DNA of 6,434 nt, taken from positions 1 to 6,434 of the IMG/VR virus record IMGVR_UViG_3300022758_000035; one strand, 5' to 3'. The position numbers and the translations under genes were made by a program. The first letter of the stretch is position 1; each line of letters starts with the position of its first letter. Shown here one piece after another: positions 417 through 6,434 of the stretch. The notes beneath the pieces were generated by a model. The model did not search any database, was not told the origin of the DNA, and saw only the letters and a program-made list of their open reading frames with translations. This stretch comes from a virus.

Positions 417-447
417 AAAAAAATTTTCCCCCACTTCGTGGGGGAAA
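417..447 (-). terminator. Rho-independent terminator closing the minus-strand gene cluster.
   Basis: The minus strand reads TTTCCCCCA-CGAAG-TGGGGGAAA followed by A-TTTTTTT-G. That is a 9-bp stem (425..433 pairing with 439..447), extendable through C434/G438 around a GAA triloop, followed by a T7 run (417..423). It starts 10 nt after the VP2 stop codon (TAG, 460..458). Confidence 0.7.
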
Positions 448-457
448 GAAAATAGAT

Positions 458-1573
458 CTATTTGCGGCCAACAGAATTACCAATACCTTGAAATATACGA
501 GTGCCATAATCAATAGCATTACGCAATTCATAAGAGTTAACATCCTTTTGTTTCTGTTTAGAACTCCATTTATAATAATCACGCAAAGCCTTATCCTTAG
601 AATATTCAATATTCTTAAGGACGTTGGTATTCTTCGAATCCCATAGAGAAAACAAACCTTGAGCACGATTAGACTGAATATTAGCATAAATCAAAGAATC
701 AGCCGTCTGTTCAGCAATCTTATTACTAATACGAATACCATTCGTTTCAGCAGACGTCTTAACAGCCTGAGCCATCTGATTTTTATACTGAGCTTCAGTA
801 AGAGCTCCTTGTGCGTAAAGATTAGATAGTGTTTGACCTTTGATAAATAGATCAGCCTGTTGTTGCTCATCAAGATATTTATTCAATACCTGCTGAGCCT
901 TAGAATCAAGCAAAATCTGTGCTTCTTGGGCAGAAGTAAGACGACCAGCAAATTCCATATTCTTAAGATCCTGATACTCCTTAGATTGATCTAGGAGTGC
1001 AGAACGCCTGCCAGTAGAAGCATTCCAATAGCCTGACTGACCAATACCAATATTACGATAATTAGTATCACCAAGGATCTGTTGCATCTTATAAGGAGTA
1101 AGAGCAGCATTCTGTTCGGCATTAAGCATAGCAGCACGAGCCTGAGCCATAGAAGCCAATGCAGAACCGACATCGGAAAAATCCGGGCGAAAAGCCTGAA
1201 TGCTAGGAGGAAGAGCAGCAGAAGCAGCAGAACCCCCAGAAGCAGGAGACTTAGAAACACCAGCACCAACACTAGAACCAATAAACGGATTAAGACCACG
1301 AGAAATCATCTCGTTAGGTGAATTGTAGCGATTATTACGATTCCACATATCAGTCGTCCACTGACGTTGCATAGCAGCCTGGTCAGCATTAAACTGATTA
1401 TTCTGACGATTAATCTCAACATTAGCATCATTAGTAGCAGACTGAGAAGATGCTCCAATAGCATTACCAGCAAGAGAAGCACCAGCGGCAATAATACCAC
1501 CAAGGACAAGCGGAGCAATATGTTTTTCGGAGTGCCCCATTAAGGGGCTTTCTCCGATATCATAAAACCTCAT
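458..1573 (-). CDS. VP2: Microviridae VP2-like minor capsid / DNA pilot protein, 371 aa.
   Basis: It has a Gly/Ala-rich hydrophobic N-terminus (APLVLGGIIAAGASLAGNAIGA). This is followed by NRQNNQFNADQAAMQRQWTTDMWNRNNRYNSPNEMISRGLNP, which resembles the conserved ..AGLNP.. block of gokushovirus-type VP2, and then Ala/Ser/Gly/Gln-rich coiled or low-complexity sequence. Its ATG (1573..1571) overlaps the upstream TGA (1572..1570) as ATGA. An alternative start is M12 at 1540. Confidence 0.85.
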   Translation of the reverse strand: MRFYDIGESPLMGHSEKHIAPLVLGGIIAAGASLAGNAIGASSQSATNDANVEINRQNNQFNADQAAMQRQWTTDMWNRNNRYNSPNEMISRGLNPFIGSSVGAGVSKSPASGGSAASAALPPSIQAFRPDFSDVGSALASMAQARAAMLNAEQNAALTPYKMQQILGDTNYRNIGIGQSGYWNASTGRRSALLDQSKEYQDLKNMEFAGRLTSAQEAQILLDSKAQQVLNKYLDEQQQADLFIKGQTLSNLYAQGALTEAQYKNQMAQAVKTSAETNGIRISNKIAEQTADSLIYANIQSNRAQGLFSLWDSKNTNVLKNIEYSKDKALRDYYKWSSKQKQKDVNSYELRNAIDYGTRIFQGIGNSVGRK

Positions 1574-2013
1574 TGAGCAGAAGAGTCAGGGGCGGACGCG
1601 GGAACGGGCTCTGACTTTTGCTCTGCCAACATAGCTTCGGCGTACTTGGTCAATTCCGACTTCTCACCAGCCAATTGTTGTAAAACAGCCTGCCTTTCAG
1701 ACATCGTCTGGCAATGCCGAGAAATAACACAATTAAAGCGCTCCTCGTCAGTCATACCATCCATCATAGTAGACTGAGTAGGATGCATCTGGGCAAGAAT
1801 ATTCTGAACATTCATATCACCAAGCAAACGACGATATTTCTCCTGATTAAGAAGAATAGAGGTCATATCCATATACTTAAATGAACCATCAGGCATTTCT
1901 TCCAACATAACCGAATCATATACATTAGGTTCGTAACAAGGATTTCCTTCAACCAGTTCAGGAGATACAGTATCCTGTTTAAAATCGGGATTAGTATAAG
2001 CAAAGCTTCTCAT
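1570..2013 (-). CDS. Hypothetical 147-aa protein between VP1 and VP2. Positional candidate for a VP3-like internal scaffolding protein.
   Basis: I chose the start at ATG 2013..2011 (MRSFAYTNPDF...), 13 nt after the VP1 stop. The track ORF start at 2142 would overlap the VP1 3' end by 116 nt, and its extra residues look like junk (MSLRLLLVIIVWLM...). The protein is acidic and Met/Gln-rich with a C-terminal helical-looking segment. The function is assigned from position only. Confidence 0.6.
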   Translation of the reverse strand: MRSFAYTNPDFKQDTVSPELVEGNPCYEPNVYDSVMLEEMPDGSFKYMDMTSILLNQEKYRRLLGDMNVQNILAQMHPTQSTMMDGMTDEERFNCVISRHCQTMSERQAVLQQLAGEKSELTKYAEAMLAEQKSEPVPASAPDSSAQ

Positions 2014-2026
2014 AAAAAACAAAAAA

Positions 2027-3760
2027 TTAAAAAGGTAAACCATTTCTATCCAAGTTCTGGATAGCATACACTTGAAAATTAACATTACACAATAACTGGT
2101 CATAAGCCACACTATAATTACTAGTAGTAATCTGAGGCTCAAAAATAGAATTCAACTGCTGAGGACGAATCTTAAATGATTGGTAACTCAATGAAGACTG
2201 ACCAGAAACTTGAATTTGAGAACCTTGAAGAGGAGCAACCCAAGATTGGTAAGCAGCAGCAGGACGAAATGCACCGTGAACCGTATCTACAGCGGATTTC
2301 CATTGCCAATAACGCAAATTATATCCGATACTACCAGTGACAGATGAGGGGCTATTATTAAGAGCCAGAGACGGGACAGGCTGCATACCTAACTGGTCAA
2401 AAGCAGGTTGCGGAAAGTCAGAAATAGATGTACATAACAACTGGGGGTTATGACCCTTAAGAGACCAATCGAGCAAAGGAACAGCGTGATAAACACACAT
2501 AATCACCTGATGTTCAGCACCGCAATCATAAGTGATAGTATGACCAGATTTAGAACCTACACCCTTACCAGCAATAACAGCTTGGGAATCATCAGCAGTC
2601 AAATTGGTATTCAAAACCTCATTAATGTTAATTACATTAGACCAGCCACCAATATAATGAGCATGGTTACCCATGTATTCGGGGGCTTTAATGCCAAACT
2701 GGGCAGCCATCTGATCTGAGTAATCCTTGCTAGAGAATTGAACTACTTCTTTCCAACGCTGGAGATATTCAGTCGCACGAATTGATAGGGCGGAAAGATC
2801 AGAATTAATACGCAATTCACGAGAAGAGGAAGTAGTATTCAACGTAACCACAGAAGTACTAGACGCGGGATTATTAACAACAGATGATTTATTCTCTAAA
2901 CCATAAGCAATAACACGATTAGGAGTAGCAGTTAAATCATAAACAGAAGATAATACAGCTACCGAACCATACTGGGAAGAAGGAAGGACACCAAGGAAAT
3001 AATCCTTAGGATAGTTCGCATAACGAAGTTGAAGCATATCAGCAGAAATTTCAACAGAGCTCTTGCCATCCCAATAGTCAACATTATAAGCGTAAGCCTT
3101 ATGTTTTTCCCATTGAGAGTTACTAAAGAAATCATAGTAAATTTTCTGATAAGAAAGAAGGGGAAGAAGATTCAAATTAACACTAGTGCCATAAATAAGA
3201 GGGTTCTGACCATCAGACAATGAAGTGGTATTAAGACCAAGATACTGTCTAGTAATTTCGGCTTTCTTGTCATTCGAAGAACCAATAAACGAGCCATAAC
3301 CAAGCATATCCAATACCTTACAAGATCCATAAGCAAATCCAAATCCAGCATCATCCAAAGTACCAGAAGCCGTTCTATTGCGAATTTCACCAGAAATATT
3401 ACCAAGAGGAGCGTACGGAACATTAAGCAACTGTTCTGTATTAGAAATATTACTAGCAGCACTAGTCATATAATCCGACATTTGCGTAAATGCCTGCGGT
3501 AGCGCACGAGAAATTAAACGTAACGGCACAGCGTAGAAATCATAATACTCCTTAATACGGGTATAAGCCGCCGTATTCACCGGGACAGTACGGGTAAACC
3601 AATCAGAAGAAATACGATACGTATTATCGGGAATAGCAATCTGCCAATAGCAAGGGAGAATCTCACCAACTTTGGCGGTAAACAATTTTTTCGAACTCAG
3701 ATCGAAAGAAGACCGATGGGTAGAAATCTTAGCTCGGTCTAAAGGATTAAAATCACTCAT
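2027..3760 (-). CDS. VP1: Microviridae major capsid protein VP1 (F-protein family), 577 aa.
   Basis: The N-terminal block STHRSSFDLSSKKLFTAKVGEILPCYWQIAIPDNTYRIS matches the conserved microvirus VP1/F signature (R/H-s-F-D-L-S ... f-T ... G-x-L-x-P ... lP-gD-t). The length and the position after Rep are typical. Confidence 0.95.
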   Translation of the reverse strand: MSDFNPLDRAKISTHRSSFDLSSKKLFTAKVGEILPCYWQIAIPDNTYRISSDWFTRTVPVNTAAYTRIKEYYDFYAVPLRLISRALPQAFTQMSDYMTSAASNISNTEQLLNVPYAPLGNISGEIRNRTASGTLDDAGFGFAYGSCKVLDMLGYGSFIGSSNDKKAEITRQYLGLNTTSLSDGQNPLIYGTSVNLNLLPLLSYQKIYYDFFSNSQWEKHKAYAYNVDYWDGKSSVEISADMLQLRYANYPKDYFLGVLPSSQYGSVAVLSSVYDLTATPNRVIAYGLENKSSVVNNPASSTSVVTLNTTSSSRELRINSDLSALSIRATEYLQRWKEVVQFSSKDYSDQMAAQFGIKAPEYMGNHAHYIGGWSNVININEVLNTNLTADDSQAVIAGKGVGSKSGHTITYDCGAEHQVIMCVYHAVPLLDWSLKGHNPQLLCTSISDFPQPAFDQLGMQPVPSLALNNSPSSVTGSIGYNLRYWQWKSAVDTVHGAFRPAAAYQSWVAPLQGSQIQVSGQSSLSYQSFKIRPQQLNSIFEPQITTSNYSVAYDQLLCNVNFQVYAIQNLDRNGLPF

Positions 3761-3778
3761 AATTAATTAATATTTAAA

Positions 3779-5461
3779 TCAAACCATACGGTTAAAAATA
3801 CCATTAGCATCATTAAGCCGCTTGTGCTTGGTCATATCACGACAGAATGTCGAACTACGGTACCGAAGTTGTTCAAGGAGTTGAACAGTTTCACTTGATA
3901 CGGCTTGCAGGACATCCATCTCTTGCCCGTTCTGAGGCAACGCAAACATACAATCCGAGAGCTCTGGATACTGGGATCGAAGATCATATGCATTTCGTAA
4001 ACTTTCATAATCCGCTTTCTTCTCATACTCTATGCCCGTTTTGATAATAAAGCCAATGCGACCGGAGTAAGCGCTAATATCGGAGCCAAAAAGCGGGAGA
4101 TGCCAATTAAGGAAGAACTTATAGACATATAAGAACAATCGATATAACTTATTAATATAAGAATCAATATCGACATCGCTAGAACTATTGCAAAACCTAG
4201 TAAGGCACCGAGAAGTATGTAATATAATTTTGTCATCATCAGTAAGAATAGAATGAACCTTAAGATATTGATAATAGACCCGAACAAGGCTCAAAATTGA
4301 GCCTTGGTTGAAATCAATGAATCCGAACTTTGCAATTCTTTGCGGCGTTCGGTGAACAGCGAGAAGAATTCGAGCAATCGCAGTAGCATCGTCATTGCGA
4401 GCAGACGAGAACCTTGGCAGTAAGGTACGGATATACGACAAGGGTGGAGTGGAGCGAACACTAACGCCAGCGAAGTTATAGACTCTTCCATTAACGACAG
4501 AATCGAATTTTTTTTCAATTTGCGCATAAGGGTCTTCGTTCTCCACGAAAGAGCAACCCTTTTCAAAGAATCCAACAGATGATCTTGATTTGGGTCTAAA
4601 TGCGCGGCATGATCTATATAATAAGGGAGCAGAACACAAGCTATTAACGTAGCTCGCAACGTATGAACAAGCTCCACCTGCGGAACGTTGGAAATCTGAA
4701 CGACCGAGTTTCCAACTCTTATCATGACAGTATCGTAAAACTTGGGAGACTTCGTCCGAGTTTGTGAATAATAAGAGATGATAATGCGGGCGGAAATGAA
4801 CGGGTCCATACTCACCCACAGCGTAGAAATGTAACGTTTCATAAGAACCTAGTTTTTGAAATAAATGTTTACGCAAGCGCTTAATATAATTCTGAACATC
4901 AACATAATTCAGAAAAGGAATAAGATTATCTCCGTATCTGTCGGATAGCCTTCCATTTTCACCGTAAGGTGAATCGGATTTCGTCTTAGCAATAAAGGAA
5001 CGGATAGCATCCATAGACAAAAACCAATTATCCTTAACTTCTTCATACTTAGACAGGGTACGGTCAAATGGCACCGTACCCTGGACTTGTGTAAAAAATA
5101 TATGACGCAATTGAGATGAATCTACGCAACTATATTCGGATACCGGAACAAACGAATGTTTTTCATAACCATAATGAATGTCTCCTGACTCATTTAAAAC
5201 ATCGTCGTAGACATTGTCCAAAACCTCACATTTAAATAAGGGAACATGTTCATTATCATAAGTAAGAGTTACAAAATAAGAATACTTAAAAGCACTTCCA
5301 GCGGTCTTCACGCGCATAGAAGCCTTTTTAGCTTTCTTATGAATACAGTAATCGCATTGACCACAATCTACAGCAATGCGTGCACCATTATACTTATTCG
5401 TAATAAAAGAACGATGCTGACAATGATCAACAGCCTTAAACAAATCAGGAGAAAATTTCAT
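3779..5461 (-). CDS. VP4: Microviridae replication initiation protein VP4 (HUH rolling-circle endonuclease), 560 aa.
   Basis: Four motifs support the call. The N-terminal Cys cluster is CGQCDYC (aa 33-39). Motif 1 is FVTLTYD (aa 63-69). The HUH motif is RPHYHLLLF, with HYH at 4778..4786, verified as CAT TAT CAT on the minus strand. The twin-tyrosine motif is YVASY at 4649..4663, verified as TAC GTT GCG AGC TAC. These are the same motif types as phiX174 protein A and gokushovirus VP4. Confidence 0.95.
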   Translation of the reverse strand: MKFSPDLFKAVDHCQHRSFITNKYNGARIAVDCGQCDYCIHKKAKKASMRVKTAGSAFKYSYFVTLTYDNEHVPLFKCEVLDNVYDDVLNESGDIHYGYEKHSFVPVSEYSCVDSSQLRHIFFTQVQGTVPFDRTLSKYEEVKDNWFLSMDAIRSFIAKTKSDSPYGENGRLSDRYGDNLIPFLNYVDVQNYIKRLRKHLFQKLGSYETLHFYAVGEYGPVHFRPHYHLLLFTNSDEVSQVLRYCHDKSWKLGRSDFQRSAGGACSYVASYVNSLCSAPLLYRSCRAFRPKSRSSVGFFEKGCSFVENEDPYAQIEKKFDSVVNGRVYNFAGVSVRSTPPLSYIRTLLPRFSSARNDDATAIARILLAVHRTPQRIAKFGFIDFNQGSILSLVRVYYQYLKVHSILTDDDKIILHTSRCLTRFCNSSSDVDIDSYINKLYRLFLYVYKFFLNWHLPLFGSDISAYSGRIGFIIKTGIEYEKKADYESLRNAYDLRSQYPELSDCMFALPQNGQEMDVLQAVSSETVQLLEQLRYRSSTFCRDMTKHKRLNDANGIFNRMV

Positions 5462-5463
5462 AA

Positions 5464-5772
5464 TTACTTACGTTTATCGATTACTTGATGACGATTCCGG
5501 TCACCAAATGAAATATGAATGAATGTAGGATACAATATCAACTGGTCAAATGTATGAGTATTATCCGAGTAACTATAGATATGTTTAAGTAACCGGCTAT
5601 AAGTAGTAGAGCCATAAGGTTTAATATCAATAGCCTCTCCAAAAAGATGCTGAGAGTTAGGAACACCACCAGCAGCCTCATTGTCAACAACAGAACGCTT
5701 AGCACTTGTCACTGTAAAATGCAAGTTAAAATATAACAAGTGCTCAAGAAAATCCATAAGAGCAATATTCAT
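5464..5772 (-). CDS. Zinc D-Ala-D-Ala-carboxypeptidase-like peptidase, family M15 (Peptidase_M15_3-like), 102 aa. Candidate endolysin.
   Basis: The sequence TVTSAKRSVVDNEAAGGVPNSQHLFGEAIDI carries the S-x-H-x-x-G-x-A-x-D signature. H42 and D49 form the H-x6-D zinc-ligand pair (5647..5649 and 5626..5628), and a third ligand candidate H86 lies in FIHIS (5515..5517). There is no N-terminal signal peptide or TM segment. The stop is 2 nt before the VP4 ATG. Confidence 0.8.
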   Translation of the reverse strand: MNIALMDFLEHLLYFNLHFTVTSAKRSVVDNEAAGGVPNSQHLFGEAIDIKPYGSTTYSRLLKHIYSYSDNTHTFDQLILYPTFIHISFGDRNRHQVIDKRK

Positions 5773-5852
5773 AATCCAATAGCGTTAAGGATGTAACCAA
5801 AAGCGGCAGAAACAGCGCCAATCAAAATTTTCCAAATATTATTATTTTTCAT
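5769..5852 (-). CDS. Possible 27-aa single-pass membrane peptide (MKNNNIWKILIGAVSAAFGYILNAIGL). Holin-like candidate. Absent from the ORF track because of its size.
   Basis: Hand translation runs from ATG at 5852..5850 to TGA at 5771..5769. A polar N-terminus is followed by about 22 hydrophobic residues. Its TGA overlaps the peptidase ATG (5772..5770) as ATGA. Its start overlaps the last 11 nt of the upstream ORF. Confidence 0.45.
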   Translation of the reverse strand: MKNNNIWKILIGAVSAAFGYILNAIGL

Positions 5853-6048
5853 TGCTTTGAGCTTTAAGTTCAACAAAATGATCTACAAAATGATCTTCCT
5901 CTTTAATCGAATCCACAACAACAATAAAATCCAACGAAGATACTCGCTCAGAATAAACTCCAAGACCATCGAGAGAATTGATAACATAAGGTGAGATAAC
6001 ATCACGACCAGTGTTTTTGTCCTTAACTGAGATAATAAATTTCTGCAT
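5842..6048 (-). CDS. Hypothetical protein and first gene of the cluster: 68 aa from ATG 6048. The track version is 95 aa from a TTG at 6129.
   Basis: The track ORF begins with TTG (the reverse complement of caa at 6127..6129). That TTG is part of the TTTG -33 box of a near-consensus promoter, and the -7 box would lie inside the ORF. The first ATG downstream of the predicted transcription start that opens a real frame is 6048..6046 (MQKFIISVKDKNTGRD...). The protein is net acidic (12 D/E against 8 K/R by hand count). I recognise no family. Confidence 0.5.
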   Translation of the reverse strand: MQKFIISVKDKNTGRDVISPYVINSLDGLGVYSERVSSLDFIVVVDSIKEEDHFVDHFVELKAQSNEK

Positions 6049-6099: not shown

Positions 6100-6130
6100 C
6101 AAAGGTATGAGTTTTTTTTGTATTTCCAAA
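6100..6130 (-). promoter_or_regulatory. Bacteroides-type sigma-A promoter, TTTG-N19-TACCTTTG, driving the minus-strand gene cluster.
   Basis: The minus strand reads taTTTGgaaatacaaaaaaaactcaTACCTTTGcgcc. The -33 TTTG is at 6130..6127. The -7 TAnnTTTG is at 6107..6100. The spacer is exactly 19 nt (6108..6126). It is the only exact full match I found in the intergenic region, and it sits directly upstream of the first gene. Confidence 0.6.
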
Positions 6131-6179
6131 TAATTTTTTTTAGAAATTGTGGGGAAAGGACCATTTGTGATGGAGTGTG

Positions 6180-6247
6180 AGTTGTGCGTTTATGGACAAG
6201 AAATGGAGAATTCGAGAGGATAACTCGAATTTGCTTCGCACACAACT
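6180..6247. other. Nested imperfect stem-loop directly upstream of the main promoter.
   Basis: The outer arms are agttgtgcg (6180..6188) and cgcac-ac-aact (6237..6247), giving 5+4 bp with a 2-nt bulge. The inner hairpin is perfect over 8 bp: aattcgag (6209..6216), loop aggataa, ctcgaatt (6224..6231). Confidence 0.45.
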
Positions 6248-6271
6248 AGGGGCTTCGCTTAATTAACAAGT

Positions 6272-6292
6272 GGATGTATACAGGGGTGTATA
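6272..6292. repeat. Tandem GG(A/G)TGTATA motifs 12 nt apart, with a third copy at 105..113. Iteron-like.
   Basis: The copies are ggatgtata (6272..6280), gggtgtata (6284..6292) and gggtgtata (105..113, which is 6412..6420 in the repeat copy). All are in the same orientation and they flank the GC-rich hairpins. Confidence 0.4.
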
Positions 6293-6297
6293 GGCAC

Positions 6298-6319
6298 GGC
6301 AGATCAAATAGAATCTGCC
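6298..6319. other. Perfect 7-bp hairpin spanning the arbitrary contig start point.
   Basis: The structure is ggcagat (6298..6304), loop caaataga, atctgcc (6313..6319, equivalent to 6..12). It is visible only when the circle is closed. Confidence 0.5.
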
Positions 6320-6434
6320 TTTGCGCGCCGTCGCGCTAAAATACCGGGGCGGAACGCCCCTATAAGGAAGTCGCTCCGCTCCGTTTTTCGACCAAGCCCT
6401 ACGCGGGCGGCGGGTGTATATCGCTCAAACGCCG
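6308..6434. repeat. Terminal direct repeat, copy 2. Exact duplicate of 1..127, read as circular-contig overlap.
   Basis: Same evidence as copy 1: 127/127 identical by direct comparison. Confidence 0.9.

Follow-up and report, generated by a model that had tools for sequence, protein, structure and literature searches.

The window analysed here (the whole stretch of 6,434 nucleotides, IMG/VR record IMGVR_UViG_3300022758_000035) represents a single complete microvirus genome, circular and 6307 nt long; bases 1-127 of the window recur at 6308-6434. All genes of this genome are carried on the minus strand, in the order ORF68, TM27, M15 peptidase, Rep, major capsid protein, a 147-aa ORF and pilot protein. 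The features, with the basis for each, are as follows:

6100..6130, minus strand: Bacteroides-type promoter motif TTTG-N19-TAnnTTTG (motif match)
5842..6048, minus strand: ORF68, a conserved 68-aa gene (homologues upstream of the peptide in all relatives)
5883..6005, minus strand: interrupted upstream extension of the TM27 frame, a 40-aa ORF in the window (ORF reading; continuous in most close relatives)
5870..5893, no strand assigned: 12-nt tandem duplication specific to the window (repeat seen in the window only)
5769..5852, minus strand: TM27, a 27-aa membrane peptide gene (MKNNNIWKILIGAVSAAFGYILNAIGL) (ORF reading, selection, hydropathy)
5769..5772, minus strand: ATGA stop/start overlap of TM27 and the peptidase (read from the sequence)
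5464..5772, minus strand: 102-aa Peptidase_M15_3, a LAS-type zinc peptidase without a signal peptide (Pfam, PHROG, alignments, AF2 model)
3779..5461, minus strand: Rep/VP4, the replication initiator (Pfam/PHROG matches)
2027-3760, minus strand: major capsid protein (Pfam/PHROG matches)
1570-2013, minus strand: 147-aa ORF (ORF reading)
458-1573, minus strand: pilot protein (Pfam/PHROG matches)
425..447, minus strand: strong terminator-like hairpin 3' of the pilot gene (probable end of the transcription unit)

The promoter motif, whose consensus we take to be of the Bacteroides type, lies about 50 nt upstream of ORF68 and is the one match in the genome, against 0.11 expected. It recurs at the equivalent position in 74 of 112 relatives, where it is almost the sole match per genome, and it is likely the start of a single transcription unit. 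With this motif upstream of ORF68 and the hairpin after the pilot gene, the genome looks like one transcription unit of a virus with a Bacteroidota host. Given the motif and the nearest cellular homologues of the peptidase, which are at most 44% identical and mostly from Bacteroidales, the host is probably a Gram-negative member of the Bacteroidota. The nearest database genomes, at 74-82% nucleotide identity, come from dog, lemur, rodent and human samples. No prophage copy of the virus was found in the cellular genome contigs searched, which yielded only distant peptidase homologues (at most 44% identity, mostly Bacteroidales), and Rfam and tRNA scans of the window returned nothing significant. 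ORF68 has a pN/pS of 0.33 and no match in Pfam or PHROG, and its single-sequence AF2 model is poor (pLDDT 65). Its last 11 nt overlap the start of TM27 from the ATG on, a detail absent from the first-pass annotation.

The 102-aa ORF starts with an ATG at 5772-5770 and ends in a TAA 2 nt before the Rep ATG at 5461. It had been read as a complete M15-type metal site on a protein without a secretion signal, for which a Peptidase_M15_3 match and an M15 fold were to be expected, and each of these points is borne out. The protein passes the Pfam Peptidase_M15_3 model (PF08291) with 35.7 bits against a cut-off of 23.2 (E 1e-8) and is matched by PHROG 894, 'endolysin' (E 1.9e-15); the PF08291 match is also present on all 120 of the homologues listed. 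R26, H42, D49, D76 and H86, which include the proposed metal ligands H42, D49 and H86, are invariant in alignments of relatives reaching down to 41% identity, and phmmer aligns the segment R...SxHxxGxAxD (R26...H42...D49) to the Streptomyces zinc DD-peptidase 1lbu. An AF2 model built from 64 sequences (pLDDT 86.3) has 1lbu as its best Foldseek match (probability 1.00, E 1.4e-3), followed by the T5 endolysin 2mxz, VanY 5hnm and LdcB 4oxd, all of them M15/LAS enzymes, with TM-scores to these structures that are modest (0.43-0.57). The N-terminus is acidic (D7, E10), lacks a basic n-region and in the model forms one of the helices of the domain itself, so that it is not a signal peptide. The enzyme is a short form: the Pfam match spans profile positions 28-107 of 108, so that the domain is incomplete, and the usual homologues, of 126-174 aa, have an extra N-terminal segment that is missing here. 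This shortened form is conserved in about 1900 metagenome proteins, and the gene has a pN/pS of 0.30 in the genomes used below for the selection test on TM27.

Searches with tblastn found the peptidase in 111 phage records, mostly microviruses, and most of the microvirus matches listed already carry the GenBank annotation 'peptidase'. Peptidase_M15_3 domains in Alpavirinae and Gokushovirinae were reported in 2012 as horizontally acquired, possible endolysins (Roux et al. 2012, PMC3394797). A 2022 survey counts peptidases among the accessory genes that are associated with lysis in microviruses (Kirchberger et al. 2022, PMC9239249), and the peptidoglycan hydrolase of microvirus Ebor (Gp7) was shown to be active in 2025 (PMC11980548). 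The peptidase half of the finding is therefore not new, M15 enzymes having been known in microviruses since 2012; the interest lies in TM27.

The TM27 ORF, directly upstream of the peptidase, runs from an ATG at 5852-5850 to a TGA at 5771-5769, and the stop overlaps the peptidase ATG as ATGA. The encoded peptide has a polar head of charge +2 and a conserved Trp; the remainder, up to the C-terminus, is a hydrophobic segment of 19 residues (Kyte-Doolittle 1.94). The earlier description of a 27-aa ORF with a polar head and one hydrophobic helix, joined to the enzyme gene by ATGA, thus agrees with our reading. The peptide ends within the hydrophobic helix (...LNAIGL), with no charged residue past K8. 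One face of the helix is made up wholly of small or polar residues, G12-A16-G19-N23; the equivalent face of the type B peptides, a second sequence type, is A12-A16-S19-S23, and a small/polar face is kept across three sequence types.

TM27 is a real coding gene under strong purifying selection. Sequence upstream of the peptidase was available for 94 genomes: the window itself, 80 relatives from IMG/VR and 13 from GenBank. All of them have the ORF directly before the peptidase and out of frame with it, starting with ATG in 93 and GTG in one, so that the predicted synteny of a short membrane ORF with the peptidase holds throughout this set. It might be objected that so short and unannotated an ORF is a chance open frame, lying in a spacer conserved for nucleotide-level reasons, in a T-wobble-rich genome where hydrophobic off-frame ORFs are common. 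This explanation is effectively refuted: codons 5-26 overlap no other gene, and among 77 distinct nucleotide versions variation is concentrated at third codon positions (0.22/0.08/0.70 bits by codon position), with a pN/pS of 0.09 for the coding frame and of 1.5 and 8.9 for the two alternative ones. Serine codons, moreover, switch between TCN and AGC, and the ORF is kept in 94 of 94 genomes of this set and 79 of 80 in the census described below.

TM27 is annotated as a gene of its own in none of the GenBank relatives examined, where it sits either in an unannotated gap of about 70 nt or under a wrong-frame extension of the peptidase. A common gene caller has a 90-nt minimum; at 84 nt TM27 is below it, which may explain its absence from the database records examined. 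A fusion of peptide and peptidase, as the longer 'peptidase' of the GenBank genomes Dulem 226/238/243 (starting 63 nt upstream) might indicate, was rejected as mis-annotation, because the 63-nt extension is the non-hydrophobic peptidase frame read through the peptide gene, while the conserved product lies in the other frame. Papers on microviral M15 peptidases and further literature searches mention no membrane partner. The supposition that the partner is undescribed therefore stands as regards the literature found and fails in another respect, since Pfam already lists DUF6486, of which TM27 is a distant relative.

In most close relatives the TM27 frame remains open across ORF68, giving a 73-aa ORF overprinted on ORF68, in which a hydrophobic N-terminal stretch of 31 residues is followed by a strongly basic loop and by the TM27 helix. 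The window genome has long hydrophobic +1 ORFs throughout; that the 73-aa frame is a pure artefact of T-rich wobble is nevertheless overturned for the close relatives by codon resampling and a test of at-risk codons. The long frame is open in 45 of 46 genomes versus about 2% expected when the ORF68 protein sequence and clade codon usage are resampled, and stop-creating synonymous codons occupy 1 of 627 at-risk sites in the ORF68 overlap versus 165 of 506 in the peptidase and 252 of 1511 in Rep. Synonymous divergence in the overlapped part of ORF68 is 0.21 versus 0.42 and 0.50 in its neighbours. In most close relatives the long frame is thus kept open by selection; a dual long and short product is a possibility there, and it may even be the 73-aa form, and not the 27-aa peptide, that functions. 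Type B does not conserve the extension, a second, oral lineage lacks it, and in the window it is broken by the 12-nt duplication at 5870..5893, which adds DHFV to ORF68 and creates a TAG in the long frame. What all have in common is thus the 27-aa unit, which is the right annotation for the window.

A search of IMG/VR with a back-translated peptide pattern recovered 112 genomes, with the peptidase right after the peptide in 102 and the ATGA overlap in 101. Ten genomes have instead ORF68, the peptide, a common 52-nt T-rich spacer and then Rep, with no peptidase anywhere. A remnant of the enzyme gene was sought in the spacer, which has no similarity to it, and a substitute hydrolase was likewise rejected, all coding space being accounted for. 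The peptide of these ten genomes is still strongly selected (pN/pS 0.097). A census of the 80 closest relatives by Rep, chosen to remove selection bias, gave the following states:

Peptide and intact peptidase: 67/80
Peptide and frameshifted peptidase: 1/80
Peptide only: 11/80
Neither, with the peptide frame decayed: 1/80
Peptidase only: 0/80

The peptide is thus kept in 79 of 80 genomes and the intact peptidase in 67 of 80. Both genes are present throughout the outgroups, so that the genomes with the peptide alone have lost the peptidase secondarily. Microvirus mar63 is the only genome seen anywhere with the peptidase and without the peptide, and in other M15-bearing microviruses (L099, L100) no such peptide was present in the 2-3.3 kb loci scanned around the peptidase. 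A textbook holin-only phage should not lyse, yet 11 of these 80 relatives are without any peptidase.

The census also bears on the possibility that the peptidase serves entry, through local digestion of the wall while the DNA is delivered, and that TM27 is unconnected to it. Trace amounts of Ebor Gp7, a microvirus peptidoglycan hydrolase, were detected in virions (PMC11980548), which is the kind of observation that such a role would lead one to expect. The dispensability of the peptidase in 11 of 80 relatives is nonetheless hard to reconcile with a requirement at entry; its tailed-phage homologues are annotated as endolysins within lysis cassettes, and it has no linkage to structural proteins. 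We regard an entry function as very improbable.

A second lineage, of human oral microviruses (6.6-7.1 kb) whose capsid protein is about 25% identical to that of the window, encodes a 28-29-aa ORF, MKKxNVWKLVLQIAVSALTALATALGV, right after the pilot gene. This peptide is under selection (pN/pS 0.32) and lies 600-1200 nt upstream of a full-length 144-aa M15 peptidase, to which it is unlinked. Peptide and M15 peptidase occur together in all nine genomes of this distant lineage that were examined; their co-occurrence as a whole comprises only two independent lineages. The oral peptides score 22.3-39.9 bits on Pfam DUF6486, a 31-position model with a cut-off of 22.7 bits. TM27 of the window fails this cut-off and has no Pfam match at all, and the best type A variant, from peptidase-less genomes, stays below it at 17 bits. 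The TM27-type (type A) profile, however, aligns to that of the DUF6486-type peptides in hhalign with a probability of 94.4% (E 9e-8, 26 columns), and the two share their size, an MKxxN-W-K head and the layout of the helix. By this profile comparison TM27 is a distant relative of DUF6486, and the family was thus already catalogued, without a function. No paper mentioning DUF6486 was found, and its Pfam entry records neither a function nor a link to lysis.

In the GenBank phage collection searched, the TM27 type is restricted to microviruses, while the peptidase has cellular and tailed-phage relatives; these differing distributions argue against acquisition as one block. Together with the 11 of 80 relatives that have the peptide only and the unlinked genes of the oral lineage, they speak against the proposal that a miniature cassette was acquired as a unit, and an obligate, jointly acquired cassette of TM27 and peptidase is not supported. 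The horizontal origin that the first-pass annotation proposed agrees, as regards the peptidase, with the published interpretation of that enzyme (PMC3394797).

That TM27 behaves as a core gene independent of the peptidase, and is unlinked to it and follows the pilot gene in the oral lineage, also raises the question of whether its function lies outside lysis altogether, for instance in superinfection exclusion, in membrane anchoring of replication or assembly, or as an accessory of DNA delivery, its adjacency to the peptidase reflecting merely an insertion site for foreign genes before Rep. Its family, DUF6486, has no assigned function, and phiX174 also has a small membrane protein, K, whose role is unclear. 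Such a function would leave these genomes with no other candidate for lysis and a signal-less peptidase in need of some route across the membrane, and it has to face an overlap with the peptidase start that is kept in more than 100 genomes. We consider it unlikely.

The retention of TM27 in genomes without any peptidase equally fits a single-gene lysis protein of the E or LysM kind, blocking MraY, MurJ or a similar target, with the peptidase a later add-on that helps a failing wall. A specific protein contact would be expected to keep the helix sequence nearly unchanged, as is the case, and the idea accords with the small transmembrane Sgl proteins known and with single-gene lysis as the accepted paradigm for Microviridae (bioRxiv 10.1101/2022.01.20.477139; 10.1101/2023.10.16.562596). 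By Pfam and PHROG, however, TM27 resembles neither protein E nor any Sgl family. Such a role would also leave unexplained why the gene is so tightly coupled by ATGA to that of the enzyme and why the two co-occur in two lineages, because a block of wall synthesis gives a cytoplasmic enzyme no access to the wall. A role of this kind therefore seems to us rather unlikely.

In light of the above, we propose that TM27 is a membrane-lesion lysis peptide and that the signal-less M15 enzyme is its coupled, dispensable endolysin, which reaches the wall via the lesion; from the sequence comparisons made here we judge the chances of this reading to be about evenly balanced. TM27 is in this reading nearly a core gene of the clade. 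The analysis shows that both genes are real and selected, and it shows their overlaps, the family of the enzyme, its lack of a signal peptide and the distribution of the two genes across genomes; the steps that follow are proposed. From one Bacteroides-type promoter, ORF68, TM27, the peptidase, Rep and the structural genes would all be transcribed together. With the TM27 start inside the end of ORF68 and the peptidase start on the TM27 stop, the three genes would be translationally coupled, so that peptide and enzyme would accumulate together. For TM27 itself we infer the topology, oligomerisation, membrane damage, role in lysis and timing as follows. The peptide would insert in the membrane with its basic head in the cytoplasm, may self-associate via the conserved small-residue face G12-A16-G19-N23, and at a critical level would damage or depolarise the inner membrane. 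The 12-kDa signal-less peptidase could then get to the peptidoglycan, cut peptide links and speed rupture. Where the peptidase has been lost, TM27 alone, probably through host autolysins, would still suffice for release.

Microviruses are among the most abundant phages of the mammalian gut, and papers since 2012 have pointed to the M15 peptidase, never to how a signal-less enzyme crosses the inner membrane. TM27 offers a concrete candidate, a selected membrane micro-gene placed on the start codon of the enzyme, and at 27 residues it can be directly synthesised or expressed, so that host lysis by microviruses outside the phiX174 group becomes a testable question. The usual hierarchy is reversed: more genomes keep the peptide than the enzyme, and it is the former that looks like the core component, the endolysin like the accessory. 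There is also a blind spot in annotation, an 84-nt gene that is missing from the records examined, some of which have wrong-frame calls over it. More tentatively, and with confidence somewhat short of even, we suggest that the abundant microviruses of gut and mouth without a protein E could have, in TM27 and its DUF6486 relatives, the lysis gene that has long been missing for them. A length of 27-29 residues would make the product smaller than any known phage lysis or holin-like protein. Some lineages would use it by itself and others together with an acquired M15 endolysin that has no signal, and many genomes would make 73-aa and 27-aa forms from one overprinted frame, in the manner of a holin/antiholin dual start.

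Lysis cassettes of tailed phages and Bacteroidales prophages resemble the window in that the gene of a small membrane protein adjoins that of a signal-less M15 endolysin, with stop and start overlapping or abutting. A tailed-phage homologue of the enzyme, in Stenotrophomonas phage Siara, belongs to a cassette of endolysin, holin/antiholin and spanin. Several Bacteroidales M15 homologues are directly preceded by a 65-68-aa two-helix protein or by a one-helix protein, and one bears its own N-terminal membrane helix; a small membrane protein followed by an M15 enzyme is thus a normal lysis-cassette layout. The logic of holin and endolysin in tailed phages is also the one proposed here, membrane lesion first and wall hydrolysis second. 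Unlike these cassettes, the window genome has no spanins, and TM27, with 27 aa and one helix, has no charged tail at its C-terminus and resembles their membrane proteins neither in sequence nor by profile. A derivation of TM27 from the 2-TMD proteins beside Bacteroidales M15 genes was rejected, there being no profile similarity. Judging from these comparisons, the TM27 family is apparently different from the cassette membrane proteins and specific to microviruses.

Measured against holins, TM27 is a small protein with at least one predicted TM helix by Kyte-Doolittle hydropathy, and its gene is adjacent to the endolysin in the window and in 101 of 112 relatives, though not in the second lineage. 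It has no hydrophilic, highly charged C-terminal tail and no significant match to a holin family in Pfam or PHROG, one variant reaching Phage_r1t_holin at an E of 0.033, which is not significant. Peptide and intact peptidase are found together in 67 of 80 relatives and the peptide alone, under selection, in 11 of 80; that the membrane gene outlives a lost endolysin is the reverse of what an obligate pair predicts. The holin/endolysin module read by the first-pass annotation accordingly survives in part: the M15 enzyme, the membrane peptide and the ATGA are there, while the lack of a holin tail and family, and a peptide that outlives its enzyme, do not fit the name.

Type I toxin peptides (TisB, DinQ and the Hok family) are 19-50 aa long, combine a short polar head with a single helix, and depolarise the inner membrane; they are chromosomal or plasmid-borne and controlled by antisense RNA. 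The resemblance of TM27 to them lies in size and in the head-plus-helix layout.

The M15_3 proteins of Alpavirinae and Gokushovirinae (PMC3394797, PMC9239249) are like that of the window in domain (PF08291), genome type, gut/Bacteroidetes link, proposed endolysin role and horizontal origin. The enzyme of the window differs in its minimal length of 102 aa, without the first ~27 Pfam positions, and these two papers describe no membrane partner. TM27 has no match to a lysis protein in Pfam or PHROG and no similarity to phiX174 E, MS2 L or LysM of phage M. These single-gene lysis proteins nonetheless share with it a minute size, a single membrane helix, a place in the genomes of tiny phages and partial overprinting on other genes. 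A lysis gene of this kind would account for the relatives that have no peptidase, since such proteins bring about lysis with no muralytic enzyme from the phage. Coupling to a wall hydrolase, the normal arrangement for TM27, is not a feature of known Sgl systems.

Selection holds open a 73-aa overprinted frame in relatives of the window genome, formed where the frame of TM27, the 27-aa membrane-peptide gene joined to the peptidase gene, continues upstream across the 68-aa gene ORF68. In these relatives, codons synonymous in ORF68 that would create a stop in the 73-aa frame occur at 1 of 627 at-risk sites, as against 17-33% in control genes. The corresponding features are:

5883-6005 (-) in the window, also in relatives L015-L094: extension of the TM27 frame over ORF68
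5870-5893 in the window: 12-nt tandem duplication, TCAACAAAATGA / TCTACAAAATGA on the + strand

In the window the 73-aa frame is interrupted by a TAG. The tandem duplication, found in this genome alone, adds DHFV to ORF68 and makes a stop in the long TM frame. ORF68 itself (5842-6048, -) is kept in all relatives and is translationally coupled to TM27; it matched no family, and its single-sequence structure model is poor and all-beta.

The window peptidase (5464-5772, -) is a minimal 102-aa form in which ~27 N-terminal positions of the Pfam model are missing, while homologues in other phages and bacteria span 126-174 aa. In Dulem virus 238, 243 and 226 (L006, L008, L009) the start given in GenBank for the peptidase CDS is an in-frame ATG 63 nt upstream of the proper one (locus 1438-1500), and the CDS as annotated crosses the conserved peptide gene out of that gene's frame. 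Several genomes lack the peptidase altogether (L102, L134, L138, L147, L152, L155, L168, L176, L184, L213, L310), and these have in common one 52-nt T-rich spacer and identical peptide substitutions (S23, V27). Given that they are nonetheless dispersed over the Rep tree, these observations suggest either that one deletion allele spread through recombination or that the tree is poorly resolved. The three individual departures are Microvirus mar63 (L235), where the peptide gene is absent and the peptidase is joined via ATGA to the ORF68 homologue; L313, which lacks the peptidase and whose peptide frame has decayed; and L185, whose peptidase is disrupted by a duplication and a frameshift.

Three non-coding features flank the genes:

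6100-6130 (-): Bacteroides-type promoter consensus
425-447 (-): strong terminator hairpin
6161-6307 running on into 1-153: ~330-nt non-coding element, immediately upstream of the promoter

All window genes are enclosed between the promoter consensus and the terminator hairpin, which implies that they form one transcription unit and that the host belongs to the Bacteroidota. The ~330-nt element, GC-rich in part (up to 63%), is conserved across ~190 related loci as against 10-35 for the remaining non-coding region. It had no Rfam match, and several hairpins are predicted when it is folded as coding-strand single-stranded DNA (z = -3.1). It could serve as a replication origin or packaging signal.

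In the distantly related oral microviruses, a DUF6486 peptide gene lies directly 3' of the pilot gene:

L097 (OR149003), 382-468: unannotated DUF6486 peptide
L098 (OR148991), 796-885 and 895-1017: unannotated DUF6486 peptide and second ORF

What is annotated in OR149003 is a 56-aa ORF that overlaps the peptide gene in a different frame, and the second, likewise unannotated ORF of OR148991, shortly downstream of the peptide, is 40 aa long and hydrophobic. Among bacteria, in four loci from Tannerellaceae and Parabacteroides (L215, L220, L230, L232), the M15 gene is immediately preceded by one for a conserved two-helix protein of 65-68 aa; the sole family match of this protein is a weak one to DUF308, and it looks like a holin.
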